64,000 bases of DNA from an uncultured Anaerolineaceae bacterium (GTDB lineage: Bacteria; Chloroflexota; Anaerolineae; Anaerolineales; E44-bin32), in NCBI GenBank assembly GCA_964492745.1, contig CAZBLT010000008.1:8239-72238 (forward strand), in the 5' to 3' direction. The notes below the pieces were generated by a model. That model had not been told where the DNA came from. It searched no databases and saw only the letters and a program-made list of their open reading frames with translations. The position numbers were made by a program, and so were the translations under genes. This document shows positions 2 to 17,983 of this stretch, in pieces (positions within the stretch are counted from its first letter, which is position 1; every line of letters starts with the position of its first letter).

Positions 2-1207
2 ATCATTGGTGACGGCACCGGACCCGACATCTGGCGCGCCGCGGTGCGCGTGTTCGACGCCGCTGTTCAAAGGGCCTATGGCGGAAACCGTCGGATCGCC
101 TGGATGGAGGTCTTCGCTGGCCAGCGGGCCTATGATCGCTTGGGTGAATGGCTCCCCGACGAGACTGTGCGAGCCTTCCAGGAATTCCTGGTAGGGATCA
201 AGGGCCCCCTTACCACGCCTGTCGGTGGTGGCATCCGCTCGTTGAATGTCGCCCTGCGCAAAGCGCTGGACCTGTATGTCTGCCTGCGTCCTGTGCGCTA
301 CTTCGAGGGCGTCCCTTCCCCGGTGCACAACCCCCAAGATGTCGACATGGTAATCTTCCGGGAGAACACGGAGGACATCTACACAGGCATCGAATTCCCG
401 GCCGGCTCCGAGGCCAGCACTGCCTTCTGCGGCTGGCTGGCACAAAACTATCCGGAGGAATACGCCAAGATTCGCTTCCCGGAGACCTCCGGCTTCAGCA
501 TCAAGCCCGTCTCGCAGGAAGGCACCGAGCGGCTGGTGCGCGCCGCCATCCGTTGGGCGCTCGAGAATGGCCGCCGCTCGGTCACGCTCGTGCATAAGGG
601 CAATATCATGAAATACACCGAAGGGGCTTTCCGCAACTGGGGCTATGAGGTCGCCGAACAGGATTTCAAAGACCGCGTCTACACCTGGGCCCAATGGGCG
701 CGCACAAGGGCCGAGCGGGGCGAGGATGCAGCCAACACCGAACAGGCTCAGGCACTGGAGGACGGCGCGCTGCTCGTCAAGGATGCCATCGCCGACATCG
801 CCTTTCAGCAGGTTCTCACACGCCCCCGCGAGTTCGATGTGATCGCCACCATGAATCTCAACGGTGACTACCTCTCAGACGCCCTTGCAGCACAGGTGGG
901 CGGAATCGGCATCGCCCCCGGCGGCAACATCAACTACGAGACCGGTCACGCCGTCTTCGAGGCCACGCATGGCACCGCGCCAAAGTATGCGGATAAGGAC
1001 ATGGTGAACCCCGGTTCGGTGATCCTCAGCGGTGAGATGATGCTGCGCTATATGGGCTGGGGGGAGGCGGCCGATCGGATCATCCAGGGCATGAGCGGTG
1101 CCATTCGGGCCGGCACGTTGACCTACGACTTTCACCGCCTGATGGAAGGGGCCACCAAACTGAGCACCTCCGCGTTTGGCGACGCGGTCATTGCCCACAT
1201 GGCATGA
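2..1207 (+). CDS. icd: NADP-dependent isocitrate dehydrogenase, 5' end outside window
   Basis: Frame is open from nt 2 ([22 protein letters not shown]...) and continuous with track ORF 44-1207. IDH-type motifs [24 protein letters not shown] and [23 protein letters not shown]. Confidence 0.9.
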
Positions 1208-2752: not shown

Positions 2753-3532
2753 CTAGATCCCTCCCCCCAGGCTTGCGGCGAGGTCGTAGAGTCGATCCGC
2801 AAGATCGCATATCACTTCTCGCATGCAGAGGCGCTCAACCCAAGAGCCTGGGGTGCCCGACTCGCCATAGTAGGCGCCGGCGATCTGGCCATATATCGCG
2901 CCTGTCGTGTCGGCGTCCTCACCCAGATTGACCGCCAGCAGCGCGCCGACAATCAGGCCGGCGAAGTAGCGGCAGGCATCCACAGCTTCGCGCGCGCCGT
3001 GCGTGGTGCGTGAACTCTCTGCGGCATAATGGATTGCCCTCTCCGGATCGCGGCAGTAGAAGAGCGGGATCGGTGCCAGCCGCATGAGAGAGCCGTTGCC
3101 CGCCGTGCGCTTGTCGGTTGGGCCGCTGAAAGGATCCCCGGTGTGTTCGTATATCCGCAGTGCGGCGCTCATCGTGCGGCCGATATCGAAGCACTCTCCG
3201 GTGGAACTCATAAAGCCTTCATGCCACCATTGGAGATAGCGATCCATCTGGTCTCGGGCGTCGAACCCGCCGTTCTCTACCAGGCTGGCTGCCAGGCAAA
3301 GAGCCACGGATGTGTCGTCGGTCCATTGGTCGGGCTCAAGCCCGAAGGGGCCACCGCCGACCATGTCGGTGATCGGCTCGAAGGTGCCGGGGCGCTGGAA
3401 CTCCAGGGCGGTGCCCAAGGCATCCCCGATCGCAAGTCCGAGGAGCGCGCCATGATATCGAGACCGAAGCTCTTCCATGGACCTTCTCCCCCGGTCCCTC
3501 TTCATCGAGGTTGCCGCGGGTATGCCCGACAA
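2753..3532 (-). CDS. ADP-ribosylglycohydrolase family protein
   Basis: ARH/DraG-type motifs [52 protein letters not shown]. Start uncertain; alternative ATGs at 3505 and 3478. Confidence 0.8.
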
Positions 3533-3565
3533 CCCAAAGCGCTAGCATTGTGGCTTCGTGTATGC

Positions 3566-4589
3566 CTATCCAACATCTCGAATCATGACCTTCTCCATCG
3601 CATCCAGAAAGCATAGCTGAACACTGGGCGATACCCCGAGCAGGGACCGAACCGCCTCCGCGTAGCGTTGCATTTGACGCCGATGCTTTTCAATAACCCT
3701 TATGAGGTCATTTTCATCCCGCAATTCATCGGCCTTGAAATCGATCAGCTTCCATTCGCTCGCATGGCGATAGAGGAGATCCATGACCCCTGAATCGAAC
3801 ACCCGGCCCGGGACAGGCCAGACATACGGCAACTCACGATAGCTTGCATCGGCCGCATCGATTTCTTCCTTGAGCGGGTGCTGCATGAAGCGCTCGAGCA
3901 GCCTGCGGGCCGCCTGGATTGCGGCTGCTCGCTGCACCGGCTGGACCATGCCTTCATTCAAGGCCACCGAATCATAGGAGGCGCTCGATGCCCTCCTGAC
4001 CCGGAAACAGCCTGCGCTCCAATGCTCGATGGACCATGAGGCCGATCACAGCAGCCGGTGGATGCACATGCTCCCCCGTCGCCCGCCAGTCGCGAGCGGG
4101 CTCTTCGTCCAGCTCTGCATCCAGCACCTCGACTGTCTCAGCTTCGATAGGCTTATAGAGGGGCTGCTCGTCCGAATGCGGCCACATCTTTTCAGGCACG
4201 CCCTCAGACGCCCGGCCAGCGTCCACCTTCTCGGGATCCATCCAGGCGGCGATCTCCACGCCCTCCCCGAGCGACAGGTGGTGCCAGCAGGCCGGCTCTC
4301 CTACCAGCTTCTCGATATCAAGATCGGCGGCCTCGGCGAGGGCCTTCATCCAACCCTCCGCCTTCACGCCCCTCGAGCCAACGGTGCAGTGCCCACTGAT
4401 GATCAGCTTCTCGCGCTCCCGGGTGGCGGCCACATAGAGCAGGCGATTCTCCTCCGCCTCGGACTGCCTCCCATCCAGCCAGCGCGCGAATCGATAGGCC
4501 AGGGGCATCGTCATCATCCCGGCTTCCAGATCGTTGAGCACCTTCAGCCGTTTCTGTTCCTTGCCGTTCAATGTCACCTGTTCTCTCAT
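3566..4589 (-). pseudogene. remnant of a UvrD/AddA-type helicase-nuclease (C-terminal part only, frameshifted) fused to a transposase-like N-terminal leader
   Basis: Two adjacent ORFs in different frames (3972-4589 and 3566-3967). The first carries helicase motif VI-like NRLLYVAATREREKLIISG. The second carries RecB/PD-(D/E)XK nuclease motifs (GVMDLLYRH..WKLIDFKAD, QMQRYAEAV). All ATPase domains are missing. The first ~27 aa (MREQVTLNGKEQKRLKVLNDLEAGMMT) resemble N-termini of IS481/ISNCY-type transposases, from memory. Confidence 0.65.
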
Positions 4590-4600
4590 GAGGTGACATT
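4570..4600. repeat. 10-bp perfect inverted repeat enclosing the start codon of the chimeric remnant ORF
   Basis: AATGTCACCT (4570-4579) and AGGTGACATT (4591-4600) are separated by 11 nt that contain the minus-strand ATG (4587-4589). Confidence 0.7.
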
Positions 4601-4661
4601 ATTACTGAACTAATAACCCCTGACATTTTTATTGGACTATAACAAAGTTCGAATTTGGTTC

Positions 4662-4689
4662 TTGACAAGTCGAAAATCCATGCTAGTCT
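4662..4689 (+). promoter_or_regulatory. sigma70-like promoter for the leader region
   Basis: TTGACA (4662-4667), 16-nt spacer, TAGTCT (4684-4689). Lies in an AT-richer intergenic stretch. Confidence 0.4.
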
Positions 4690-4709
4690 ATTTTGCAATA
4701 GGTAAGCCT

Positions 4710-4808
4710 ATGGGTTTCACTTTTTTCTCGCTGTTCATCTCCCTGATATCGCTTCTCATCCTTATTTTGGTCGAGAGGGCTTGCCCGATTGGGGTGATGG
4801 AGCGCTGA
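4710..4808 (+). CDS. candidate leader peptide 1 (32 aa, Ile/Leu/Val-rich)
   Basis: ATG 4710 is preceded by AGGT at 6-nt spacing. Translation is MGFTFFSLFISLISLLILILVERACPIGVMER, with stop TGA 4806-4808. Too short for the ORF track. Confidence 0.5.
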   Translation: MGFTFFSLFISLISLLILILVERACPIGVMER

Positions 4809-4827
4809 GCCTGTACGAGAAGCGCAG

Positions 4828-4858
4828 ACACCTCCCAATCGGGAGGTGTTTTTCGTTT
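4828..4858 (+). terminator. intrinsic terminator T1
   Basis: 9-bp stem ACACCTCCC/GGGAGGTGT, loop AATC, followed by TTTTCGTTT. Confidence 0.7.
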
Positions 4859-4876
4859 ATGCGTGAGGATCGAAGA

Positions 4877-5002
4877 ATGATGATGCCGCCGATTTCCAAG
4901 CTCACCCTGTTCATCCTGGTCCTTATCCTGCTGCCCATTTGCGGGCAGCTCCCGTCGGTTGGGCACGATCCGGGTTGGTCCGTGGAGATGAGCGGGGATT
5001 AG
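4877..5002 (+). CDS. candidate leader peptide 2 (41 aa; 47 aa if started at ATG 4859), Ile/Leu/Val-rich
   Basis: GAGGA (4865-4869) sits 7 nt before ATG 4877. Translation is MMMPPISKLTLFILVLILLPICGQLPSVGHDPGWSVEMSGD. Same frame as track ORF 4781-5002. Confidence 0.45.
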   Translation: MMMPPISKLTLFILVLILLPICGQLPSVGHDPGWSVEMSGD

Positions 5003-5027
5003 ACGGGATCAGATAGCGGGGAGTACC

Positions 5028-5062
5028 AGGAGCTGCCTCAACCTACGGAGGCAGCTCCTTTT
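5028..5062 (+). terminator. intrinsic terminator T2
   Basis: Perfect 12-bp stem AGGAGCTGCCTC/GAGGCAGCTCCT (5028-5039 / 5048-5059), 8-nt loop, then a TTTT run. Confidence 0.65.
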
Positions 5063-5089
5063 GAATCAACATCCTGTCATGGAGGTGAG

Positions 5090-5305
5090 ATGATGAAGAG
5101 ACGGAGACCGACCCCAGATGCTCGCACTTCGAATGCGGATACGGGCTTCGATGTTCGAGGTCCATGGGTCAACGCCTGGGATCCCAACTGGGAAAGAGTG
5201 TCGCCTACGGCCTCGGGAGACCAGCCATCAGGCGAGGATGTCTGCGCCCGGTCACCCGATCCGCAAGAAGCCGCGCAAGGCGAATACCGCGGGCAGGCCG
5301 CATGA
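5090..5305 (+). CDS. hypothetical 71-aa protein (doubtful)
   Basis: Strong GGAGGTGA (5081-5088) lies just before ATGATG (5090/5093). The protein is low-complexity with no recognisable family. The ORF lies between T2 and ilvD. Confidence 0.3.
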
Positions 5306-5412
5306 TTCATCCAGACTGCCCGCAGGATCAGAGGATCCCCGGCCCCCGCCCATTTGCTCGAGACAGCATCGGTCTGGATGGGCAGGCGATTGAACGGCCC
5401 CCAAGGCTCGCG

Positions 5413-7080
5413 ATGCGTTCCAATCAGATCAAACAGGGTTTCGAACGCGCACCTCACCGCGCGCTGCTCAAGGCGGTCGGCGTGGGCGACGCGGATATGC
5501 CAAAACCGTTCGTGGCGGTCGTCAACTCCTACGCGGATATTGTTCCGGGTCACGTCCATCTGCAGGCTTTCGCCGGGACCATCAAGGAGGCCCTCCGCCG
5601 GGCCGGCGCAGTCCCCTTTGAGTTCAACACCATCGCCGTGGACGACGGCATCGCCATGGGGCATCTGGGCATGAAGTTTTCCTTGCCCAGCCGTGAGCTG
5701 ATCGCCGACAGCGTCGAGACGATGATATCGGCCCACTGCTTCGACGCCATGATTTGCATCCCCAACTGCGACAAGATCGTCCCCGGGATGATCATGGCGG
5801 CGTTGCGCCTGAACATCCCAACCATCTTCGTTAGCGGCGGGCCGATGCCCGCAGGCACAACACCCGATGGGCGGGCTGTCGACCTGATCAGCGTCTTCGA
5901 GGGGGTGGGCGCACTGAAGGCGGGCAGGATTGACGAGCAGGATCTGAAGACTCTCGAGGACCACGCCTGCCCCTCCTGTGGATCTTGCAGCGGTCTGTTC
6001 ACCGCAAACAGCATGAATTGCCTCCTCGAGGCTCTGGGTCTGGCGCTGCCCTTCAACGGCAGCGCCCTCGCTCAATCGCAGGAGCGCATCGAGCTGGCTG
6101 AGGAGGCTGCCCAGCGGCTGATGGATCTTATCGACACCGACCTCACCCCGCGCCGCATCGTGACGATGGAGGCTATCGACGACGCTTTTGTCCTGGACCT
6201 GGCGATGGGCGGCAGCACGAACACCGTGCTCCACATGCTGGCGATCGCGCACGAGGCCCAAATCGATTACCCCCTAGAGAGGATCAATGGGCTGGCAAAG
6301 CGTGTGCCACAGCTCTGCAAGGTCAGCCCGGCCTCGCAATGGCACATGCAGGATGTGCACCGGGCGGGCGGGGTGCCGGCGATCTTGCGCCAACTCAGCC
6401 TCGAAGGGGAGCTACTACACCTGGATCGCCAGACGGTCAGCAGCAAGTCGCTTGGCGAGAGCATCGCCGACGCTGCCATCCGGGACCCCGACGTCATCCG
6501 GCCGCGCAGCGACCCGCATGAGGAGACCGGCGGGCTCGCGATTCTCTTTGGCAACCTCGCCCCCGAGGGCGCGGTGGTAAAGACCGGCGCTGTCGCCGCC
6601 TCGATGCAGCGGCATGCCGGGCCGGCACGCGTCTACGAAAGCCAGGAGCAGGCCATGCGGGGAATACTTGGCCGCGAGGTCAAGCCGGGAGAGGTGGTCG
6701 TCATCCGCTATGAAGGACCCGCTGGAGGGCCGGGTATGCAGGAGATGCTCGCACCGACGAGCGCCCTGGTTGGCATGGGCCTGGGTGAGCAGGTGGCGCT
6801 GATCACCGATGGACGTTTCTCGGGGGGAACGCGCGGCGCATGCATCGGTCACGTCAGCCCCGAGGCGGCGGTGCGCGGGCCGATCGCGGCAATCCGAACC
6901 GGCGACATCATTGAGATTGACCTGGAGGCACGCACCCTGAACCTACGGCTTCCAGAAGGCGTGATCCGGGCGCGCCTGCGGGCGCTGCCAGAGTTTGAAC
7001 CGCGCACTTCGAGCAGGTGGCTGCGGCGATATGCCCGCATGGTGGCGAGCGCCTCGGAAGGGGCTGTCCTGCGGGACTAA
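5413..7080 (+). CDS. ilvD: dihydroxy-acid dehydratase
   Basis: [23 protein letters not shown]... is a typical IlvD N-terminus. Motifs [12 protein letters not shown] and [16 protein letters not shown]. Track ORF 5164-7080 trimmed to ATG 5413. Confidence 0.95.
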
Positions 7081-7119
7081 TAGGATGGCGGCTGGAGCAG
7101 GGCGGCCAGGAGGAGTGAG

Positions 7120-8820
7120 ATGAGGATATCGGGAGCACAAGTGATCTGGGAAGTCCTGACCCGTGAAGGCGTGGAGGTCGTGTTTGGTTATCCAGGTGGT
7201 GCGATCCTGCCCACGTATGACGCCATGCTGGATTACCCTCTGCGGCACGTCCTCGCCCGGCACGAGCAGGGCGCGGCGCACATGGCCGACGGCTATGCGC
7301 GGGCGTCGGGCAGAGTCGGTGTCGCCATGGCCACCTCTGGCCCGGGCGCCACCAACCTGGTCACCGGCATTGCCACAGCGATGATGGATTCGTCCCCGAT
7401 CATCTGCATCACGGGGCAGGTTCCCGCCGCGGCCATCGGCAGCGATGCCTTCCAGGAGACGGATGTGACCGGCGTGACGCTGCCGATCACAAAGCATAAC
7501 TACCTCGTCACGCGCGGGGAGGAGATCGCGCCGGCCCTGCGCGAGGCATTCTACGTGGCCCGCACGGGCCGTCCGGGCCCCGTGCTGGTGGATATCACCA
7601 AGGACGCTCAGATGCAGACGGTGGACTTCGACTGGGATGACGGCCCCGTCCGGCTGCCGGGCTACCGGCCGGATCTGCGTGCCCGGCCGGAGGCGCTCGA
7701 TCGCGCCTTAGGACTGATCGAGAGCGCTGAGCGGCCGCTCATCCTGGCCGGACACGGGGTGATTATGTCGGGCGCGATGGACGAATTGCTCGAGTTCGTC
7801 GGCGTGACGCGTATCCCCGTCGCCGTGACGCTGCTCGGGATCGGGGCAATCCCCGCAAGCCACCCGCTGAACCTGGGGATGATGGGCATGCACGGCGAGG
7901 CGTGGGTCAATAAGGCCATCCAGGAGGCCGACCTCCTGCTGGCGTTCGGGATGCGCTTCGACGATCGCGTCACCGGAAATCTCGCGACCTACGCTCCTCA
8001 TGCCAGCAAGGTGCATGTTGACATCGATCCTTCCGAGATCGATAAGGTCGTTAAGGTCGATGTGGGCATTATCGGCGATCTAAAGCAGATCTTGCGGCAG
8101 TTTCTGCCGCGCCTGGACCCGAAACCCCGCGACGGGTGGCTGGCCCGCATCGAGGAGCTCAAGCGGGACTCCGCCGACCGCGATATCCAGAATTGGCCTG
8201 ATGATGGCCGGCTCTACGCCGCACACGTGATCCACGATATCTGGCGCCTCGCCCGGGGGCAGGCGACGATCGTGACCGACGTCGGCCAGCACCAGATGTG
8301 GCAGGCCCAGTACTACCGGCACGAGGAGCCCTACCGTCTGATCACTTCCGGCGGCCTGGGCACGATGGGTTTCGGGCTTCCGGCTGCCATAGGGGCTTGG
8401 TTCGCCCGGCCCGGGGAGCAGATATGGGCTATTGTGGGCGACGGCGGGTTCCAGATGACGGCTGCGGAACTGTCCACCTGCGTTCAGGAGAGCGTCAAGA
8501 TCAACGTCGCCGTCATCAACAACGGCTATTTGGGCATGGTGCGCCAATGGCAGGAGTTCTTCTACGAGCGCCGCTATGCCGCCACGCCGATCCGCAGCCC
8601 CGATTTCGTAAAGCTGGCCGAAGCGCATGGCCTGACTGGCCTGCGAGTCGAGAGCAGGGGCGATGTGGAGGCAGCCGTCAGGCGCGCACACCGGGAGCCG
8701 GGTGGCGTGGTGATTGATTTTCGCGTCGAGGGGGAAGACTGCGTCTATCCGATGGTGCCTGCGGGCGCCGACCTCGACACCATGATCCGTCGCCCCAAGC
8801 CCATTCCTGAACGTCACTGA
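7120..8820 (+). CDS. ilvB: acetolactate synthase large subunit
   Basis: ThDP enzyme motifs (GYPGGAILPTYDA, GGLGTMGFGLPAAIGA, GDGGFQM). AGGAGGAG lies upstream of the ATG. Confidence 0.95.
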   Translation: MRISGAQVIWEVLTREGVEVVFGYPGGAILPTYDAMLDYPLRHVLARHEQGAAHMADGYARASGRVGVAMATSGPGATNLVTGIATAMMDSSPIICITGQVPAAAIGSDAFQETDVTGVTLPITKHNYLVTRGEEIAPALREAFYVARTGRPGPVLVDITKDAQMQTVDFDWDDGPVRLPGYRPDLRARPEALDRALGLIESAERPLILAGHGVIMSGAMDELLEFVGVTRIPVAVTLLGIGAIPASHPLNLGMMGMHGEAWVNKAIQEADLLLAFGMRFDDRVTGNLATYAPHASKVHVDIDPSEIDKVVKVDVGIIGDLKQILRQFLPRLDPKPRDGWLARIEELKRDSADRDIQNWPDDGRLYAAHVIHDIWRLARGQATIVTDVGQHQMWQAQYYRHEEPYRLITSGGLGTMGFGLPAAIGAWFARPGEQIWAIVGDGGFQMTAAELSTCVQESVKINVAVINNGYLGMVRQWQEFFYERRYAATPIRSPDFVKLAEAHGLTGLRVESRGDVEAAVRRAHREPGGVVIDFRVEGEDCVYPMVPAGADLDTMIRRPKPIPERH

Positions 8821-8838
8821 GGCATAGGAGGCAGAGCC

Positions 8839-9402
8839 ATGACCAGCCGCCCATTTGCGGAGCCGAGCAAGCACACCCTTGTGGTCTACGTCGAAGACAA
8901 GCCCGGCGTTCTCAACCGGGTGGCCTCCCTCTTCCGGCGCCGGGCCTTCAACATCGATTCCCTCTCGGTGGGTCCCACAGAGCAGCCGGGGGTGTCCCGC
9001 ATGACGATCGTCGTGCAAGCCGATGACGCCACCGCCCGCCGGGTGGAGGCCAACCTATACAAGCTGGTCAACGTGCTCCGCGTGGAGGACGTGACCTTCC
9101 GCCCCGCGGTGATGCGCGATCTGGCCCTGATCAAGGTGCGAGCCGGTCGGGAGGCGCGCGCCCAGATCTTGCAGTTGTGCGAGGTTTTCCGGGCCAAGGC
9201 CCTGGACGTGGCGCCGGATACGCTGATCGTGGAGATCACCGGCACGGAGGATAAGATCGAGGGGCTGTTGGAAGTGCTCCGTCCATTTGGCATCGTCGAG
9301 ATGGCGCGCACGGGAAGGGTCGCCATGACGCGCGGGCCCCAGACAGTAACCCCGAACCCCGAGTTCGTCTCGGCACTCCTCCCAAATGAGGCAAGGGGCT
9401 GA
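8839..9402 (+). CDS. ilvN: acetolactate synthase small (regulatory) subunit
   Basis: ACT-domain N-terminus HTLVVYVEDKPGVLNRVASLFRRRAFNIDSLSVG. Sits immediately after ilvB. Confidence 0.9.
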   Translation: MTSRPFAEPSKHTLVVYVEDKPGVLNRVASLFRRRAFNIDSLSVGPTEQPGVSRMTIVVQADDATARRVEANLYKLVNVLRVEDVTFRPAVMRDLALIKVRAGREARAQILQLCEVFRAKALDVAPDTLIVEITGTEDKIEGLLEVLRPFGIVEMARTGRVAMTRGPQTVTPNPEFVSALLPNEARG

Positions 9403-9451
9403 GATCAACAGCATCCGATAGATGAGCGAATCCATAGGGGAGACGATACCC

Positions 9452-10486
9452 ATGGCTATTATGTACTACGAGCAAGATGCTGATCTGGAACTCATCCGCT
9501 CCAAGAGAGTGGCGGTCATCGGCTATGGCTCCCAGGGCCACGCGCAAGCGCTCAACCTGCAGGACAGCGGCGTGGAGGTGTGGGTGGGATTGCGGCCGGG
9601 CAGCCCGAGCCGCCAGCGGGCCCAGGATGCGGGTCTCTTGGTGGCTGAGATCCCTGCCGCGGCTGACTGGGCAGATGTGATCACCCTGCTCGTGCCCGAC
9701 ACGGCCCAGCCGGCCATCTATGCTGAACACATAGCCCCGGCCATGAAGCGCGGCAAGACGCTGATGTTCAGCCATGGCTTCAACATCCGTTTCGGGACCA
9801 TCCAGCCGCCCGCCGATGTGGACGTGAGCATGGTGGCGCCCAAGGCCCCCGGCCACCGGGTGCGCGAGACATTTCTGGACGGGGAGGGCACGCCTGCCCT
9901 GGTGGCCGTGCATCAGGATGCCAGCGGGCAGGCGCTGGCGCTGGCGCTCTCCTACAGCAAGGCGCTGGGGGCCACGCGCGCCGGGGTGATCGAGACCAGT
10001 TTTGCGGAGGAGACCGAGACCGATCTCTTCGGAGAACAGGCCGTGCTCTGCGGTGGGGTGAGCGCGCTGGTGGAAGCAGCTTTTGAGACCCTCGTGAAAG
10101 CCGGCTATCAGCCCGAGATCGCCTACTTCGAGTGCCTGCATGAACTCAAACTGATCGTCGATCTGATGTATCGCGGCGGCCTGAATTACATGCGCTATTC
10201 CGTTAGCGACACGGCTGAGCATGGCGATTACACGGGCGGCCCGCGGCTGATCACCGAGGAGACCATGGGTGAGATGCGGCAGATGCTCGCCGAAATTCAG
10301 GATGGCACCTATGCCCGCAAGTGGATCGAAGAGAATCGGAATGGCCGGCCATGGTTCAACGAGCAGCGGCGCAAGAAGCAAGAGTTGCTGATCGAACGAG
10401 TGGGAGCAAAACTGCGCAGCAAGATGCCGTTCCTCAACCCGGTCACGATCAGGCCCGGCGGCCAGCCCTCGGGGAGCGAAGGATGA
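9452..10486 (+). CDS. ilvC: ketol-acid reductoisomerase
   Basis: [36 protein letters not shown]. Track ORF trimmed to ATG 9452, which has AGGGGAG upstream. Confidence 0.95.
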
Positions 10487-12174
10487 GGGAGGCGAGTCTC
10501 AACCAGGTGTTCATCTTCGATACCACCCTGCGGGACGGTGAGCAATCGCCCGGCGCCTCGCTGACATCGACCGAGAAGCTGGAGGTTGCCCGCGGCCTGT
10601 CGAGATTGGGCGCCGACGTCATCGAAGCGGGGTTCCCCGCCTCTTCCCCGGACGAACTGCACGCTGTGCAGAAGATCGCCGAAGAGGTGGGCAATCGGCC
10701 TGCCGGTGCGCCGGAGGATTCACGGCTGCCGCCGGTGATCTGCGGCTTGGCGAGGGCCGTTGCCGAGGATATTGAGAAGGCCTGGGAGGCCGTGCGTGCA
10801 GCCGCCAGGCCCCGCATCCACACCTTCATCGCCACTTCGGACATCCACCTGAAACACAAGCTTCGCATGACCCGTGAGCAGGTGCTACAGCACGTCCACG
10901 ATATGGTGGCGTTCGCACGCGCTCTCTGCGAGGATGTCGAGTTCAGCGCAGAAGACGCCAGCCGCAGTGATATCCCCTTCCTATGTGCCGTCTTGGAGAC
11001 CGCGATCCACGCCGGCGCCACCACAGTAAACATCCCCGACACCGTCGGTTACGCCATGCCCGGCGAATTCGAGGCCCTGCTTCGTGAGATCCGGGCCAGC
11101 GTCGCAGGTATCGAGAAGGTTGTCCTGTCTGTGCATTGCCACGACGACCTCGGCCTGGCGACGGCAAACACGCTTGCCGGCATCCGGGCCGGCGCGCGCC
11201 AGGCGGAGGTCACCGTAAATGGCATCGGCGAGCGCGCCGGTAACACCTCCCTGGAGGAGGTGGTGATGGCCATCCACACGCGCCGCGATTTATTCGGCCT
11301 TTCCACCAGCGTCGATACGACCCAGATCAGCCGTGTGAGCAGATTGGTGAGCCACCACACTGGCATCGTTGTGCCGCCGAACAAGGCCATTGTGGGTGCG
11401 AACGCGTTCGCGCACGAGGCCGGAATCCACCAGGATGGGATGCTGAAGAACCATCAGACCTACGAGATCATGCGGCCGGAGTCGATCGGCCTGAGCCAGA
11501 GCCGTCTGGTGCTGGGGAAGCATTCAGGGCGCCATGGTTTCCAAACCCGCCTGCGAGACCTCGGCTACGAGCTGGGGGATGAGGAACTGCTGCGAGCGTT
11601 CGAGCGCTTCAAGGCTCTGGCTGATAAGAAGAAGATCATCACCGACGCCGATCTGGAGGCGCTGATCGCCGACGAGCTCTACCAGCCCGAAGAGGTCTTC
11701 GCCCTGGAGGGACTGCAGGTTGCCTGCGGGACGATGGGCATGCCAACGGCGACCATCAGGCTGCGTGGGCCAGAAGGCGCAGTGCGAGTGCACGCCGCCG
11801 TGGGAACTGGCCCGATCGACGCCGCCTTCAAGGCGATCGATGAGATCATCCGTGCCCCCAACCGGCTGCTGGAGTTCTCCGTGCACGCCGTGACCGAGGG
11901 CATCGACGCTCAAGGGGCCGTGACCGTGCGTATCCAGGACGCGCAGATGGAGGCGATCTCGGAAGGCCTGCCTGACGCCGGAGATCCGCGCACGTACACA
12001 GGTTACGGCGCCGATACGGACATCATCGTCGCCAGCGTGAAAGCTTTCCTGTCGGCGATGAACAAATTGCTAATCGCCAGAGCGGGCGCCCGGCGGCTGG
12101 AATGGTTCACAAACGGGATGCGATCGTCCGCGCCGCAGCCATTCGGCGAAAGCCAGGATAGGCCAGAAGCGTAG
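10483..12174 (+). CDS. leuA: 2-isopropylmalate synthase
   Basis: [19 protein letters not shown] and [16 protein letters not shown], plus a C-terminal LeuA regulatory domain. ATG 10483 overlaps the ilvC stop (ATGA). Confidence 0.9.
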
Positions 12175-12201
12175 GCCCGGCGTTCAGCAGCGAAGGTAAT
12201 C

Positions 12202-13617
12202 GTGGCCATGAGCAAGCCGAAGACCATGCTCACAAAGATCTGGGAGGCACACATCGTGGCAGAGGAGTCAGGGTGCCCTTCGATTCTCTACATTGACCTT
12301 CATCTGCTTCACGAGGTGACCTCCCCACAGGCCTTCTCCGGATTGCGCTCGCGCGGTATGGCCGTGCGCCGGCCGGAGAAGACCGTAGCGACGATGGACC
12401 ATTCCATCCCCACGGACGGCCGCCCCCGCAGCGCCCTTCCGGCGGAGGCCGCTGCACAGCTGCGGAGGCTGGAGGAGAATTGCCGGGATTTCGGCATCGA
12501 GCTCTACGGCTGGGATTCGCCCAAGCAAGGGATTGTTCACGTGATTGTCCCCGAGCTGGGTCTCACACAGCCGGGCATGACGATCGTCTGCGGTGATAGT
12601 CATACCTCGACCCACGGCGCATTCGGCGCACTGGCCTTCGGCATCGGAACGAGCGAGGTCGAACATGTGCTCGCAACCCAGTGCTTGCTTCAGTCCAAAC
12701 CCCATTCGTTTGAGGTCCGCATCGAGGGAAGGTTGCCCGCGGGAGTCACGGCCAAAGACGTCATCCTGGCCTTGATCGCCGAGATCGGCGTAGGGGGAGC
12801 AGAGGGGCACGTCTTCGAGTACACAGGATCGACGATCCGTGGGCTGGATATGGAAGCTCGCATGACGATCTGCAATATGTCCATCGAGGCCGGCGCACGC
12901 GCAGGGATGATCGCGCCAGATGACACCACGTTTGATTATTTGGCCGGACGCGAGCACGCCCCAAAAGGGGAGGCATGGGAGATGGCGCTGGAGGCCTGGC
13001 GGCGGCTGCCTGGCGATGAGGGCGCCGAACATGAGCGTTCTGTCACGCTGGACGCCTCCCAATTGGCGCCGATGATCACCTATGGAACCAACCCTGGCCT
13101 GGCGATGCCCATCACACAGTCCATCCCCGATCCCGCCAAGGTAGGCCAGCCGTCTCATCGCGCCGCCCTGACCAGCGCTCTGGACTATATGGGCTTGGCG
13201 CCAGGTCAGAAGCTGCTGGGCCACAAAGTCGACGTGGTCTTCATCGGCTCGTGCACCAACGGGCGCATCTCAGATCTGCGTCAAGCCGCCAGAGTCCTTC
13301 GAGACCGAAAAGTTGCGCCGGGCGTTCGGGCCCTGGTGGTCCCCGGCTCGCAGATCGTAATGCGGCAAGCGGAGGCAGAGGGGCTGGACCGTATCTTCCA
13401 GGAGTCCGGGGCGGAGTGGCGCCAGCCGGGGTGCTCAATGTGTATCGCTATGAACGGCGATAGCTTGCGGCCTGGCGAGTACGCTGTGAGCACTTCCAAT
13501 CGCAACTTCGAGGGCCGCCAGGGCAAGGGAGGGCGCACCTTTCTGGCCTCACCGCTCACCGCCGCCGCGGCCGCAGTCGCCGGCGAGATCACGGACGTCC
13601 GAAAGATGCTCAGCTAA
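12202..13617 (+). CDS. leuC: 3-isopropylmalate dehydratase large subunit
   Basis: Aconitase-family motifs ([44 protein letters not shown]). Start is GTG 12202 or ATG 12208. Confidence 0.95.
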
Positions 13618-13632
13618 TATGCGAAGATGTGA

Positions 13633-14241
13633 ATGCGAGTGACCCCGTTGAGAGCTTTCGACACGCTGACCTCTCGCCTCGTGCTTCTGCCCATCGATGA
13701 CGTGGACACGGATCAGATCATCCCGGCTCGCTTCCTGACTGCGCTTGAACGGGATGGCCTGGGAAAATACCTGTTCGCCGACTGGCGCTCGATGCCGGAT
13801 GGCTCGCCGAACCTCGAGTTCGTTCTCGACCGGCCGGAAGTCAAAGGGGCCAGTATCCTCCTTGCCGGGGCTAATTTCGGCTGTGGGTCCTCTCGCGAAC
13901 ACGCCGTCTGGGCGCTGATGGATTGGGGCGTGCGGGCGGTTGTGGCGATCTCCTTCGCCGATATCTTTCGCGGCAACGCCCTAAAGAACGGCCTGCTGAC
14001 CGTCGAGCTCGAGGCCGAGGCCCACACCGAATTGCTTCGCGTCGCTCGCAAAGATCCCTTAATCGAGTTGACAATCGATCTGCCTACGCAGGTCGTGATA
14101 CTGCCCAACGGACGCAAGTTTGGTTTCCCCATCGATCCCTTCGACAAGCGCTGCCTGCTGGAGGGTATCGATACGCTCGGGTATCTGCTCTCCTTCTCAG
14201 CGGAGATATCGGCCTATGAGAGGCGATGTGAACAGTCATGA
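13633..14241 (+). CDS. leuD: 3-isopropylmalate dehydratase small subunit
   Basis: DVDTDQIIPARFL and GANFGCGSSREHAVWAL. Confidence 0.9.
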   Translation: MRVTPLRAFDTLTSRLVLLPIDDVDTDQIIPARFLTALERDGLGKYLFADWRSMPDGSPNLEFVLDRPEVKGASILLAGANFGCGSSREHAVWALMDWGVRAVVAISFADIFRGNALKNGLLTVELEAEAHTELLRVARKDPLIELTIDLPTQVVILPNGRKFGFPIDPFDKRCLLEGIDTLGYLLSFSAEISAYERRCEQS

Positions 14242-15676
14242 GCTGATCCATATATATGACACGACGCTGCGGGACGGTGCGCAGCGTGAGGGCATCTCGT
14301 TCTCCTGCGAGGACAAACTCCGTGTGGCACGCTGCTTGGACAAGTTGGGCGTTGTCTTCATCGAGGGCGGGTGGCCGGGTTCGAACCCCAAGGACGCTGA
14401 GTTCTTCGAGCGTGCAAGGGCGATCCCATGGCGGGAGGCGACGATCGTCGCCTTCGGCTCTACCCGGCGTCCGAACATCCCGCCCGAGCAGGACGTCAAC
14501 CTGCTCGCTCTGCTGGATGCCGGGACGCAGGTGTGCACCCTGGTGGGGAAGAGTTCGCCGATGCACGTGCTTGAGGTGCTGCGCGCCACGCTGGACGAGA
14601 ACCTACGCATGATCGAGGACAGCGTGGGCTTTCTGCGATCTAAGGGTCGCAGGGTGATCTATGATGCAGAACACTTCTTCGATGGCTACAGGAGCGACCC
14701 TGACTATGCCATGGAAACGCTCAGCGCCGCGGCACGAGGTGGTGCGAAGACCATTGTGCTCTGTGATACGAACGGAGGCATGATGCCCTGGGAGATCCAT
14801 GCCATCGTGCGGGAGGTGAGCAAGAGGCTCGATCTGCCCCTCGGCATCCACGCTCACGACGACGCGGCGTGCGGCGTGGCCAACAGCCTCGCGGCGGTGC
14901 TGGCTGGGGCGGTTCAGGTGCAGGGTACGATCAATGGCTACGGCGAGCGCTGTGGGAATGCCAACCTGTGCGCAGTGATCCCCAGCCTGGAGTTGAAGCT
15001 TGGGTTCCGGGCCCTCCCGGAAGGCAGACTCAAGCGGCTGAGGCAAGTAGGGCGCTTTGTGGCGGAGATTGCCAACATCGCCCCCGATGAACACATGCCT
15101 TACGTGGGTAGCAGCGCCTTCTCCCATAAGGGCGGGCTCCACGTGGCCGCCATGCGCCGCAACGCGCATTCATATCAGCATGTTGATCCTGCCGCGGTTG
15201 GGAACGAGACGCGTGTCACCGTGAGTGAGCTCTCCGGCCGGGCGAACCTGCTCAGCAAGATCGAAGAATACGGGCTCGCTTCCATGGATGCCTACACCGC
15301 ATCGGAGATACTCCGCGAGCTCAAGGAGCTTGAGGCCAAGGGGTTCTCTTTTGAAGCCGCCGATGCTTCCGTTGCGATGATGATCCAGCGCCGGGCACCT
15401 TCCTATGAGCCACCCTTTGAGCTCATCGACTACGTCGTGATGGTCGAACACCGTCAGCGACGAGAGACCTTCGCCGAAGCAACGGTTAAGCTCTCTGTAA
15501 GGGGTGAGGTTCTGCACACTGCGGCCGAGGGCAACGGTCCCGTCCACGCGCTGGACGCCGCCTTGCGAAAGGCGTTATCGCCGATCTACCCGGCGATGCG
15601 CTCATTCCAACTTGTGGATTACAAGGTGCGTATCCTGGACGGCAGGCAGGGAACCGCCGCCATGACGAGGGTGTAA
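14216..15676 (+). CDS. cimA: (R)-citramalate synthase (LeuA family), ended prematurely by an in-frame TAA
   Basis: IHIYDTTLRDGAQREGISFSCEDKLRVARCLDKLGVVFIEGGWPGSNPKDAEFF is the CimA-type N-terminus. The ORF stops at TAA 15674-15676, but the same frame continues with a homologous C-terminus to 15805. Confidence 0.8.
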   Translation: MRGDVNSHELIHIYDTTLRDGAQREGISFSCEDKLRVARCLDKLGVVFIEGGWPGSNPKDAEFFERARAIPWREATIVAFGSTRRPNIPPEQDVNLLALLDAGTQVCTLVGKSSPMHVLEVLRATLDENLRMIEDSVGFLRSKGRRVIYDAEHFFDGYRSDPDYAMETLSAAARGGAKTIVLCDTNGGMMPWEIHAIVREVSKRLDLPLGIHAHDDAACGVANSLAAVLAGAVQVQGTINGYGERCGNANLCAVIPSLELKLGFRALPEGRLKRLRQVGRFVAEIANIAPDEHMPYVGSSAFSHKGGLHVAAMRRNAHSYQHVDPAAVGNETRVTVSELSGRANLLSKIEEYGLASMDAYTASEILRELKELEAKGFSFEAADASVAMMIQRRAPSYEPPFELIDYVVMVEHRQRRETFAEATVKLSVRGEVLHTAAEGNGPVHALDAALRKALSPIYPAMRSFQLVDYKVRILDGRQGTAAMTRV

Positions 15677-15805
15677 ATCGACACTCGCGATGGCCGCCGG
15701 CGCTGGAGCACGGTGGGGGCCTCCACCAATATCATCGAGGCCTCCTGGTTGGCATTGGCAGATAGCATCGAGTACGGACTAGTGATCGAATGCGGGCGCC
15801 TATAG
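15677..15805 (+). other. in-frame continuation of cimA after the TAA (42 codons, C-terminal regulatory domain end)
   Basis: Translation [42 protein letters not shown] is in the same frame as cimA. The motif NIIEASW..AL.DSIEY is typical of LeuA/CimA C-termini. Confidence 0.75.
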
Positions 15806-15897
15806 CGGAGCGCGCGGGTTACATAGATTGCCACTGCCGAGGGGCTGTCTCTTCCGTTTGATCGATTCCGCGCCTGTGCAATGGGAGTTTGGAGAAG

Positions 15898-16968
15898 ATG
15901 CGAGCAAAGATCGTGCTTTTACCCGGAGATGGGATCGGAGCGGAAGTCATTGCGGAGGCCCGCTCCGTGCTAGAGACCGTGGCACGGCTGCACGGACACA
16001 ATTTCTCCTTCGAGGAGCACCTCATTGGGGGCTGCGCGATCGAGGCGTGCGGAAGTCCGCTGCCGGAGGAGACCCTCGCCGCGTGCCGGGCGGGAGAGGC
16101 GGTCTTGCTGGGGGCCGTCGGCGGGCCGCAGTGGGAGGATCCTCAGGCGGCTATGAGGCCGGAGCAGGGTCTGCTTGTCCTGCGGCGTGAACTGGGACTG
16201 TTCGCGAACCTGCGGCCGGTACGATCCATCCCGGCGCTTGAGAACGCCTCTCCGCTGCGTGGGGAGAAAGTGCGGGGGGTGGATATCATGATCGTGCGGG
16301 AGCTCACGGGTGGCCTCTACTTCGGCCGATCCGGAACGACCAGGCTCGCGGGCGGCAGCCTGCGCGCCTTCGATACACTCGAGTACACTGAGGCGGAGGT
16401 GAGGCGTGCGGTGCGCTTGGCCTTCCGGTTGGCGATACGCCGGCGAGGTCTGGTGACCTCGGTGGATAAGGCCAACGTGCTCGAGTCATCGCGATTGTGG
16501 CGGCGTGTGACGGAGGATGTTGCGGCGGAGTATCCCCAGGTGAGGTTGGAGCATCAGTTGGTGGATTCGGCCGCCATGCGGCTGATGCAAGCGGCCGCCA
16601 CTTATGATGTGCTGGTGATGGGCAACCTTTTCGGCGACATCCTGAGTGATGAGGCCTCGGCCCTGGCAGGCTCGTTGGGCATGCTTCCGAGCGCCTCCAT
16701 TGGGGAGGGTTCTCTCGGGGTTTATGAGCCCGTTCACGGCTCCGCGCCCGACATCGCCGGGAGGGGCATCTCAAACCCTATCGGGGCGATTCTAAGCGCC
16801 GCCATGCTGCTGCGCCATTCGCTGGCGCTGGAGGCTGAGGCTGAGCAGGTCGAACGCGCCGTGGAGAAGGCCCTTGAGGCAGGCGCTCGCACCGCCGACC
16901 TAGGGGGTGAGAAGATCATCAGCACCCGGGAGATGGGCCAGGCTATCCGGGCGCAGCTGGCGCCGTGA
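15898..16968 (+). CDS. leuB: 3-isopropylmalate dehydrogenase
   Basis: MRAKIVLLPGDGIGAEV... and NLFGDILSDEASALAGSLGMLPSAS. The track start at 15889 is TTG; ATG 15898 is preferred. Confidence 0.95.
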   Translation: MRAKIVLLPGDGIGAEVIAEARSVLETVARLHGHNFSFEEHLIGGCAIEACGSPLPEETLAACRAGEAVLLGAVGGPQWEDPQAAMRPEQGLLVLRRELGLFANLRPVRSIPALENASPLRGEKVRGVDIMIVRELTGGLYFGRSGTTRLAGGSLRAFDTLEYTEAEVRRAVRLAFRLAIRRRGLVTSVDKANVLESSRLWRRVTEDVAAEYPQVRLEHQLVDSAAMRLMQAAATYDVLVMGNLFGDILSDEASALAGSLGMLPSASIGEGSLGVYEPVHGSAPDIAGRGISNPIGAILSAAMLLRHSLALEAEAEQVERAVEKALEAGARTADLGGEKIISTREMGQAIRAQLAP

Positions 16969-17047
16969 CGGCACACCACCTCATGTCGCAGAGGGCCGCC
17001 GGCCTTCACCTTGATTGGTCAGTCTGGATCCCTGCAAAGGAGTGATC

Positions 17048-17983
17048 ATGAAAACGCAAGAACCCGTGATTTGGATGGACGGCCGGTTGGTGCCGGCCAG
17101 CCATGCTTCGGTTCCCTTTTTGGCGCCCGCTCTGCACTACGGGCTGGCCGTGTTCGAGGGCATCCGTTGTTACGAGACGAATGACGGCCCTTCCGTTTTT
17201 CGTCTGAGGGAGCATCTCGAGCGCTTCTTGAAGTCAGCGCACATCCTGGGCTTGAGGGAAGTACCCTATGACCTGCAGGCGCTGCGGGAGGCGGTTCACA
17301 CGGTGATCCGCGCCAATCGCTTGCGGTCCTGCTACATACGGCCGCTGATGTACATGGCCAGGGGGTCGCTGGGCCTGAACCTCGATGAAATGCAGCCGTC
17401 GGTAGGTATCGCGGTGTGGGAATGGGGTGCCTTCTTGGGCAAGGAGGCCATCGAGAAGGGCGCGCGCATGATCGTGTCCTCCTTCACCCGGCATCATCCG
17501 AACGTCTCGATGACCAAGGCGAAGATCTCGGGCAACTATGTCAACTCTGTGCTGGCCAAGACCTTCGCCATCCGAGCGGGTTTTGAGGAGGCGGTGATGC
17601 TCGACCCCAATGGTTACGTCTCGGAGTGCACGGGGGAGAACATCTTCTTGGTACGGGAGGGCAAGATCTACACGCCGCCGCGCGCCAGCATCCTGGAGGG
17701 CATCACGCGCGATTCGATCATCACACTCGCTCAAGACCTTAAATACCCAGTTATTGAGGAGCAGATCACCCGTGACCAACTCTACGCCGCGGATGAGGTG
17801 TTCGTTTCGGGCACGGCCGCGGAGTGCGTTGGAATCCGCGAGATTGATCACCGCCTTATCGGCCAGGGGCGCATCGGCCCCATCACACGCGAGATGCAGC
17901 GGGCCTTCTTCGAGACCGTGCGGGGTGAAGGCCCGCGTTCGAAGGCCTGGCTCGATCCGGTGGCGGTTTCCTCTGCGGAGTAG
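17048..17983 (+). CDS. ilvE: branched-chain amino acid aminotransferase
   Basis: Fold-type IV aminotransferase (IWMDGRLVP, HYGLAVFEGIRCY, EGITRDS). AAAGGAG lies before ATG 17048. Confidence 0.9.
   Translation: MKTQEPVIWMDGRLVPASHASVPFLAPALHYGLAVFEGIRCYETNDGPSVFRLREHLERFLKSAHILGLREVPYDLQALREAVHTVIRANRLRSCYIRPLMYMARGSLGLNLDEMQPSVGIAVWEWGAFLGKEAIEKGARMIVSSFTRHHPNVSMTKAKISGNYVNSVLAKTFAIRAGFEEAVMLDPNGYVSECTGENIFLVREGKIYTPPRASILEGITRDSIITLAQDLKYPVIEEQITRDQLYAADEVFVSGTAAECVGIREIDHRLIGQGRIGPITREMQRAFFETVRGEGPRSKAWLDPVAVSSAE

Follow-up and report, generated by a model that had tools for sequence, protein, structure and literature searches.

We examined a 64,000-nucleotide (nt) stretch of DNA from an uncultured Anaerolineaceae bacterium (here called the window), in which a cluster of branched-chain amino acid (BCAA) biosynthesis genes running from ilvD to ilvE is preceded by a small open reading frame (ORF) rich in Ile, Leu, and Val (I/L/V) codons. 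We consider it highly probable that positions 4662-4858 form a ribosome-mediated leader-peptide transcription attenuator, through which expression of the ilv-leu cluster would follow how much charged Ile, Leu, and Val tRNA is available. BCAA-responsive attenuation of this kind had been proposed in a first-pass annotation of the window, and the recurrence of the arrangement before ilvD, ilvB, or cimA, with compensatory changes in its predicted helices, supports that proposal. The element (attenuator 1) is followed by a second of the same design (attenuator 2). We infer the transcript start, the translation of the ORF, and the response to amino acids from the analysis described below.

The leader ORF of attenuator 1 encodes 32 amino acids, 13 of which are Ile, Leu, or Val, and 9 of these 13 fall within the 10-residue run LISLLILILV at 4743-4772. 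Its codons were slightly richer in minor forms (ATT, ATA, CTT, and TTG) than those of the operon genes, with counts too small to argue from. The TGA stop at 4806-4808 lies 19 nt ahead of a hairpin, ACACCTCCC/GGGAGGTGT (4828-4836/4841-4849, loop AATC), which is followed by TTTTCGTTT; a terminator scan lengthened its 9-bp stem to 11 pairs (4826-4851). Two complementarities, ATTGGGG (4788-4794) with TCCCAAT (4833-4839) and GCGCT (4802-4806) with AGCGC (4821-4825), provide an alternative that is exclusive with this terminator. We numbered the pairing segments as regions 1 to 4 (Table 1), where 1:2 is the anti-antiterminator, 2:3 the antiterminator, and 3:4 the terminator. The predicted antiterminator joins 4787-4794 to 4833-4840 (GAUUGGGG/UCCCAAUC) and adds the GCGCU/AGCGC upper stem; once that upper stem is counted, it equals the terminator in computed energy (-18.9 versus -18.3 kcal/mol). 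The promoter hexamers and their spacing, the AGGT 6 nt before the ATG, the ORF with its I/L/V run, the hairpin, and both complementarities had all been listed in the first-pass annotation and were borne out by the letters and the translation. The geometry given there, including the positions of a ribosome at the stop codon or stalled in the run, is sound, but the annotation did not mention the 1:2 anti-antiterminator, the hairpin made of I/L/V codons (P1), or the gap of ∼560 nt between the first terminator and ilvD.

The combination of such an ORF with a terminator was concentrated upstream of ilvD. For comparison, we took 80 loci that surround ilvD relatives, amounting to 1.34 Mb over the two strands, and scanned them for small ORFs with at least 8 I/L/V in 10 residues and a terminator within 80 nt. 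All 30 pairs that the scan returned lay in the 96 kb immediately preceding ilvD, and the other ∼1.25 Mb (both strands) contained none. Within the window, attenuators 1 and 2 were the only pairs of I/L/V-rich small ORF and terminator on either strand. Nearly all of the Anaerolineae loci were carriers, as were Herpetosiphon, other Chloroflexales, and several Gemmatimonadaceae; the Herpetosiphon carriers include H. aurantiacus DSM 785, whose genome is complete. Locus L013 derives from an Anaerolinea metagenome bin. The closest IlvD relatives, from Anaerolineae metagenome bins, were at most 81% identical. Upstream of ilvD, ilvB, or cimA, dozens of related and distant genomes had this set of leader ORF, terminator, and antiterminator, with compensatory changes. 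Most related leaders also had a sigma-70-like site (9 to 12 of 12 positions, three of them perfect) with the -10 element ending 19 to 42 nt before the leader ATG, and because of this spacing we take the small ORF to be the first item on the transcript.

The family is not tied to ilvD, since scanning metagenomes for terminators of the attenuator 1 type turned up further instances upstream of ilvB-ilvN and cimA as well as ilvD. Upstream of ilvB-ilvN (L083:5641-5770), the terminator type CCUCCCAAUCGGGAGG occurred together with the leader ORF MFGGLVVVLLIGVLLIRSRTRLGGQCSG. The same terminator type was present upstream of cimA (L095, oriented 891-1055), where the sole ORF found, MNRSMKDRWTHSNTIIGIISSISISITGYMEIMAVGGK, is Ile/Ser-rich and had been missed by the I/L/V filter.

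Comparison with individual relatives indicated that the leader is maintained in detail. Against locus L001, whose IlvD is 81% identical, positions 4650-5062 were far better conserved than the sequence that follows. L001 keeps the -35 hexamer, the TGn of the extended -10, the AGGT, and the frame, length, and stop of both leader ORFs; the substitutions within those ORFs either left the amino acid unchanged or exchanged one of I, L, and V for another. The first terminator was identical in the two loci and the second differed by one loop base, and the GCGCU/AGCGC stem was kept even though 6 of its 14 loop bases differ. Locus L113 carried a near-identical copy of the window leader, with one F-to-Y change in ORF 1. 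The L096 group, with IlvD 76 to 78% identical to that of the window, had the same tandem layout and, like L001 and L113, retained the frame and stop of leader ORF 1. In attenuator 1 of the L096 group, the 1:2 helix is formed by region 1 CAGCCUGGUCC with region 2 GGAUUGGGUUG, both strands of which differ from those of the window; the P1 arms are GCUCGUCCUUAU and GAGGACGAGU, and the computed energies are -21.6 kcal/mol for the antiterminator and -17.1 kcal/mol for the terminator.

We then examined the helices across the family. In a full-length MAFFT alignment of 27 sequences (A2), 96% of cells in the terminator helix were paired, compared with 39 to 64% when the helix was slid, and 8 of the 10 pairs showed compensatory changes. 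RNAalifold recovered the terminator alone from A2 because the upstream part of this alignment was off by one column in several rows. For this reason, the antiterminator was assessed in a hand-anchored alignment (A3), in which region 2 was joined to the terminator and the variable linker was replaced by A6, and through duplex energies that require no alignment. On A3, 85% of antiterminator cells were paired (30 to 56% when slid), with compensatory changes in 6 of 10 pairs and a covariation score of 0.219 compared with 0.126 ± 0.016 in shuffled alignments; none of the 500 shuffles reached 0.219. In the alignment-free test, 2:3 duplexes formed within a locus had a mean energy of -20.9 kcal/mol, whereas cross-locus duplexes averaged -15.9 ± 0.6 kcal/mol (0 of 5,000 permutations).

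The matching changes can be read directly from the two strands. Region 2 is GGUUGGG with region 3 CCCAACC at most loci; the corresponding pairs are UUUGGG and CCCAAA in L002, L003, L008, and L047, GUUCGGG and CCCGAAC in L017, GGUUGAG and CUCAACC in L007 and the L096 group, and GGGAGGGGCU and AGCCCCUCCC in Herpetosiphon. At 14 loci the region 2 motif falls in codon phase 0, at 10 in phase 1, and at 3 in phase 2, and in L004 it lies past the stop codon. Because the motif is read in all three phases, and once after the stop, the constraint on region 2 acts on the RNA and not on the peptide. When each leader was folded from the ORF to region 2, the minimum-energy structure contained a 1:2 helix in 25 of 27 cases; in these, region 2 pairs with upstream I/L/V codons and encloses a hairpin of I/L/V codons. 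Nearly all relatives had a hairpin in the P1 position, with arms that differ from one another (GGUUCUC/GAGAACC, GGUCC/GGACC, CGUAAU/AUUACG, and CUCGUCC/GGACGAG).

From these pairings we propose the following sequence of events. Transcription would begin near 4696 from a sigma-70-type promoter (TTGACA, 16 nt, TGC-TAGTCT), and the 32-codon ORF would be translated while RNA polymerase transcribes the leader. With plentiful BCAAs, the ribosome would reach the UGA at 4806-4808 and, assuming a standard footprint, cover approximately 4791-4818, a span that takes in most of region 2, half of the lower antiterminator stem, and the whole upper stem; alternatively, region 2 may re-pair with region 1 behind the ribosome. 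In either case, region 3 would be left free to pair with region 4, and the 11-pair hairpin with its U-tract would stop transcription near 4855. If Ile, Leu, or Val were scarce, the ribosome would stall within 4731-4772, on region 1 or between regions 1 and 2, melting P1 and blocking 1:2. Region 2 would then be free as region 3 emerges, so that the antiterminator pre-empts the terminator and the polymerase reads on. Without any translation, 1:2 and 3:4 could both form and transcription would terminate. Full-length folds with a "ribosome mask" still contained the terminator, which is thermodynamically available, and the co-transcriptional order of events lies outside such folds, which we therefore set aside as uninformative.

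Read-through RNAs would next meet attenuator 2, where the decision would be made again, and the two decisions should multiply because the transcripts that escape the first attenuator encounter a second of the same design. Region 2 of attenuator 2 lies 35 to 45 nt ahead of the stop codon; given that distance, re-formation of 1:2 behind the ribosome, not masking, would have to occupy region 2 there, and this applies equally to most relatives with a single attenuator. Attenuator 2 corresponds to the single attenuator found 17 to 90 nt before ilvD in most Anaerolineae. Besides the window, L001, L004, and the L096 group have tandem attenuators; contig L081, which is 99% identical to the window, is without attenuator 1.

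Herpetosiphon probably has a tandem pair too. In H. aurantiacus DSM 785 (locus L057, from CP000875.1), the leader ORF is at L057:3466-3558. A second leader-like ORF, MRNLLTLLVTMITPRPQFIILQPIPIWSCRVGRRLR (MRNLLTLLVTMITPRPQFIILQPIPIW...), with the Shine-Dalgarno (SD) sequence GGAGGA lies between the first attenuator and ilvD (L057:3652-3830; also L055, L061, and L062), and a long hairpin and UUUCGUU come after it. The presence of this ORF together with a hairpin and U-tract suggests that tandem attenuators extend to the Chloroflexia.

Table 1. Coordinates of the leader elements and of the genes downstream
Feature	Positions	Strand	Details
Putative -35 hexamer, TTGACA	4662-4667	+	Identical in L001 and L113; TTGACT in the L096 group
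Putative extended -10, TGC plus TAGTCT	4681-4689	+	Hexamer at 4684-4689; 16-nt spacer after the -35
Weak SD, AGGT	4700-4703	+	6 nt ahead of ATG 4710; AATAGGTA conserved in L001
Leader ORF 1, 32 amino acids, MGFTFFSLFISLISLLILILVERACPIGVMER	4710-4808	+	Putative regulatory Ile/Leu/Val codons 4731-4772
Region 1, 5' half of anti-antiterminator (CAUC-U-CCCU-GAU-AUCG)	4736-4751	+	Pairs with 4786-4799 in minimum-energy folds
Inner hairpin P1 (CUUCUC ... GAGAGG)	4752-4778	+	Made of Ile/Leu/Val codons; minimum-energy folds
Region 2, CGAUUGGGGUGAUG	4786-4799	+	Predicted partner is region 1 or region 3; aligns with family-wide motif GGUUGGGCAG
Antiterminator upper stem, GCGCU (4802-4806)/AGCGC (4821-4825)	4802-4825	+	Overlaps the stop codon
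Region 3, terminator 5' arm plus loop AAUC	4826-4840	+	4833-4840 pair with region 2
Region 4, terminator 3' arm GGGAGGUGU(UU) plus U-tract UUUUCGUUU	4841-4858	+	11-pair stem; identical in L001
Attenuator 2, whole	4863-5062	+	Same design as attenuator 1; conserved in L001 and the L096 group
Attenuator 2 SD, GAGGA	4863-4867	+	
Attenuator 2 leader ORF, MMMPPISKLTLFILVLILLPICGQLPSVGHDPGWSVEMSGD	4877-5002	+	
Attenuator 2 hairpin, GCUGCCC/GGGCAGC	4930-4949	+	
Attenuator 2 region 2, GGUUGGGCA	4957-4965	+	
Attenuator 2 terminator	5028-5059	+	12 pairs, UUUU; U-tract to 5062
Trp-rich ORF, 71 amino acids	5090-5305	+	Motif G-P-W-x-N-A-W-x-P-x-W-E; SD GGAGGUGAG; between attenuator 2 and ilvD
ilvD, ilvB, ilvN, ilvC, leuA, leuC, leuD, cimA, leuB, ilvE	5413-17983	+	NCBIfam equivalog matches; ilvD start predicted

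It is important to note that several observations count against an attenuator at 4662-4858. The -10 hexamer and the SD sequence of attenuator 1 are weak. TAGTCT agrees with TATAAT at 3 of 6 positions, and because of this a simple promoter scan of the window did not report the TTGACA/TAGTCT pair; we nevertheless kept the site as a promoter, with a predicted transcript start near 4696, because the -35 and the TGn of the extended -10 are conserved in relatives (TGn in L001, TGCTAACAT, and in the L096 group, TGCTAATGT). Folding strength in the window alone was also uneven. Compared with 200 shuffles per structure, the terminator (4826-4856; -18.3 kcal/mol) had a z score of -5.5 and no shuffle was as good. 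The 1:2 helix with P1 (4734-4801; -23.3 kcal/mol; z = -1.6) was equaled by 12 of 200 shuffles and the composite antiterminator (4783-4840; -18.9 kcal/mol; z = -1.3) by 20 of 200, so that neither 1:2 nor 2:3 was better than shuffles at conventional thresholds. The bare 2:3 duplex of attenuator 1 (-11.9 kcal/mol) was matched by 195 of 200 shuffles and is among the weakest in the family. Single-sequence 2:3 pairing is thus no more than chance would give in G-rich and C-rich segments, and the case for the alternative pairings rests on the comparison with relatives. In that comparison, the shuffle-based statistics overstate significance because related sequences are not independent, and the hand anchoring and linker removal of A3 are a caveat on the antiterminator covariation.

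The weakness of the simple 2:3 duplex, which is not significant alone, is what would be expected if attenuator 1 were a decaying duplicate and attenuator 2 alone regulated the operon, as one attenuator suffices in most relatives. We hold this to be very unlikely. The helices of attenuator 1 were kept almost base for base between the window and L001, and the L096 group retains the full architecture with different sequences (-21.6/-17.1 kcal/mol). Further, L004 has a tandem pair and Herpetosiphon a second leader-like ORF, and the antiterminator, with its upper stem, reaches -18.9 kcal/mol and matches the terminator.

Somewhat less probable again is a switch that answers to a protein, tRNA, or small molecule (a T-box, a riboswitch, or a TRAP- or PyrR-like factor), with the ORF being fortuitous. 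In its favor, the alternative terminator and antiterminator structures covary, and switches of this type do not inherently require translation. Against this, the start codon, the I/L/V run, and a stop beside region 2 were kept in ∼30 diverged loci, no conserved core resembling a ligand pocket was visible beyond the helices, and no Rfam family, T-box included, reached its threshold for either the window or any of nine related loci.

The least credible alternative, to which we assign almost no probability, is that the ORF product is a stable small hydrophobic membrane peptide or type I toxin, with the hairpin as its own terminator and its proximity to ilvD incidental: the peptide is indeed hydrophobic and about the length of one membrane helix, and a strong terminator follows it, but pairs of this kind were, in the 80 ilvD loci, confined to sites upstream of ilvD (30, versus 0 elsewhere in 1.25 Mb) and also occur before ilvB and cimA, the peptides are variable outside the I/L/V run, their conserved 3' motif is read in three frames, and region 2 covaries with the terminator arm to which it pairs. 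The composition of the 14-residue peptide cores points the same way (82% I/L/V and 7% A/F/M/W/G/C/Y, where W, Y, and C are absent and M occurs once; all three of Ile, Leu, and Val in 28 of 29 cores), an indication only, because the windows were chosen for high I/L/V content.

The surroundings of attenuator 1 are also consistent with a leader-peptide attenuator. Its upstream neighbors at 2753-4589, an ADP-ribosylglycohydrolase gene and a UvrD_C-like fragment, are on the minus strand, and the hairpin at 4826-4851 therefore ends no conventional gene. The earlier statement that the 2 kb upstream contain no plus-strand gene is approximately right: on that strand, the last gene to match a family ends at 1923, and an ORF without a match ends at 2627. 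G+C content was 49.7% in the leader region and 62.6% in the window, and a tRNA scan of the 64 kb found none. The two attenuator hairpins (4826-4851 and 5028-5059) were the only terminator-like hairpins of at least 11 pairs among ten weak candidates in the window. Canonical intrinsic terminators were very rare overall (ten weak candidates on the two strands, leaving aside the attenuator hairpins), which suggests that most genes in the window end transcription by other means.

Downstream lie the ten genes of the Ile/Leu/Val pathway (Table 1), running from ilvD to ilvE. The gap between cimA and leuB (15677-15888) was 212 nt, while the other gaps in the cluster were 15 to 46 nt. A second gene of the isocitrate/isopropylmalate dehydrogenase family (Pfam Iso_dh; 44-1207, plus strand) lies outside the cluster, ∼3.5 kb upstream of the leader.

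The ∼560 nt between terminator 1 and ilvD contain attenuator 2 and the Trp-rich ORF. This ORF, which has a strong SD, was conserved in position in five lineages (relatives L001, L004, L096, and L103), and its invariant parts were limited to G-x-W-x-N-x-W-x-P-x-W-E and two later residues (Ala-Ser). It had no Pfam match, and in the protein database we found a near-identical copy only, on contig L081, and no distant homologues; the copy added little because L081 is 99% identical to the window and without attenuator 1. Candidate roles for the ORF are a small protein, a coupling device, and a regulatory nascent peptide. The long ilvD frame has an in-frame ATG that overlaps the stop of this ORF (ATGA, 5302-5305), and the gene caller on L081 places the start of ilvD at that ATG. 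Matches to the ilvD profiles set in at residue 83-84 of the ORF opening at 5164, so that a start near 5413, where there is a Met, is likely, and the N-terminal extension ahead of 5413 is not conserved in L001. An extended reading would make this a leader of three layers, undescribed so far, in which the two tandem attenuators belong to one RNA family of Chloroflexota and Gemmatimonadota with the codon hairpin nested in 1:2, and the Trp/Pro motif of the Trp-rich ORF works not as a protein but as a regulatory nascent peptide, which would arrest the ribosome or couple translation to ilvD. We regard this as speculative and, taken as a whole, rather unlikely.

Leader-peptide attenuation is established mainly in Proteobacteria, Actinobacteria, and Firmicutes. 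The enterobacterial leaders of ilvGMEDA (ilvL), ilvBN (ivbL), and leu (leuL) share with the window element a short leader ORF, regulatory Ile/Leu/Val codons, exclusive 1:2, 2:3, and 3:4 pairings, an intrinsic terminator that precedes the first biosynthetic gene, and a stop codon placed so that the terminating ribosome masks region 2. The ORF of ilvL is also 32 codons long. No sequence or profile similarity to these leaders was detectable. The hosts here are Chloroflexota and Gemmatimonadota, the putative regulatory codons form a hairpin nested in 1:2, two attenuators stand in series, and one unit would control a fused ilv-leu-cimA-ilvE cluster of ten genes.

In Firmicutes, the Staphylococcus aureus ilv-leu attenuator peptide and Listeria Rli60 represent leader-peptide attenuation before an ilvD-led ilv-leu operon, layered with CodY (PMC5794164, PMC5864092). 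The window element resembles them in that its attenuation, too, would act ahead of an ilvD-led operon, but the sequences differ. Control of ilv-leu in Firmicutes is also layered with the T-box. T-box leaders likewise read out tRNA charging through a choice between terminator and antiterminator before BCAA genes; they bind uncharged tRNA directly and do not need translation, whereas the element proposed here would depend on translation of its leader.

In Corynebacterium and Mycobacterium, the ilvBNC leader/ilvB-II motif has a BCAA-codon-rich upstream ORF (uORF) that attenuates ilvB, as predicted by comparison and then tested (PMC1262725, PMC10272879, PMC11857589). Attenuation by way of such an ORF is the shared feature, and the actinobacterial hosts are high-GC Gram-positive bacteria; the sequence and peptide differ, no tandem has been reported there, and the first gene in most of our loci is ilvD. 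The ilvB-OMG and ilvB RNA motifs, candidates from the Breaker laboratory, have been reinterpreted as uORF attenuators (PMC10272879). Among published motifs these come nearest: they are conserved RNAs upstream of ilvB whose uORF abounds in branched-chain (and Thr) codons, and like the window element they are proposed attenuators. The two ilvB-OMG sequences given in the supplement of that study (PMC10272879) are ∼210 nt long and without an evident long I/L/V run; by inspection only, they look different from the window element.

Rfam 15 at gathering thresholds gave no match in the whole window or in nine related loci, and this includes its amino-acid leader families (Leu_leader, His_leader, Thr_leader, Trp_leader, Phe_leader, and others). 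A permissive Rfam scan of 4560-5460 (E values up to 10) gave as its best match Phe_leader at 29.1 bits, compared with a cut-off of 55, and this score was driven by the terminator. The T-box family (RF00230) did not match in 4560-5460 even at E values up to 10, nor at the gathering level in the related loci. None of ilvB-OMG, ilvB-II, and ilvB surfaced in the permissive scan, and the presence of ilvB-OMG and ilvB in Rfam 15 is unconfirmed. Matches of that scan to microRNA (miRNA), small nucleolar RNA (snoRNA), and long noncoding RNA (lncRNA) families were rejected as obvious chance matches. The RegPrecise RNA survey treated Chloroflexi only via the Rfam families of its time (PMC3766115). Our full-text literature search found no such attenuators described in Chloroflexi/Chloroflexota, with the 2010 survey of Lopatovskaya et al., which may list candidates, being outside its reach; apart from that survey, these results agree with the first-pass annotation, which considered the mechanism uncharacterized in the phylum. 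As judged from sequence comparison, then, the attenuator appears to use a known mechanism, belongs to no curated RNA family, and is a member of a covarying family in Chloroflexota and Gemmatimonadota. Its unusual parts are the tandem layout and the conserved Trp-rich ORF before ilvD.

The mechanism itself is unsurprising, and the value of the finding lies in annotation and in the regulation of poorly studied phyla. To our knowledge, almost nothing is known about gene regulation in Chloroflexota and Gemmatimonadota. Because attenuation of this kind needs both transcription-translation coupling and intrinsic termination, its presence would imply that both operate in the phyla that carry it. The family offers a concrete RNA family for Rfam and genome annotation and would account for otherwise unexplained small ORFs and "orphan" terminators. 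Since it is present in the cultivable H. aurantiacus DSM 785, it is testable, and the tandem arrangement may provide a natural case for how serial attenuators sharpen a response.

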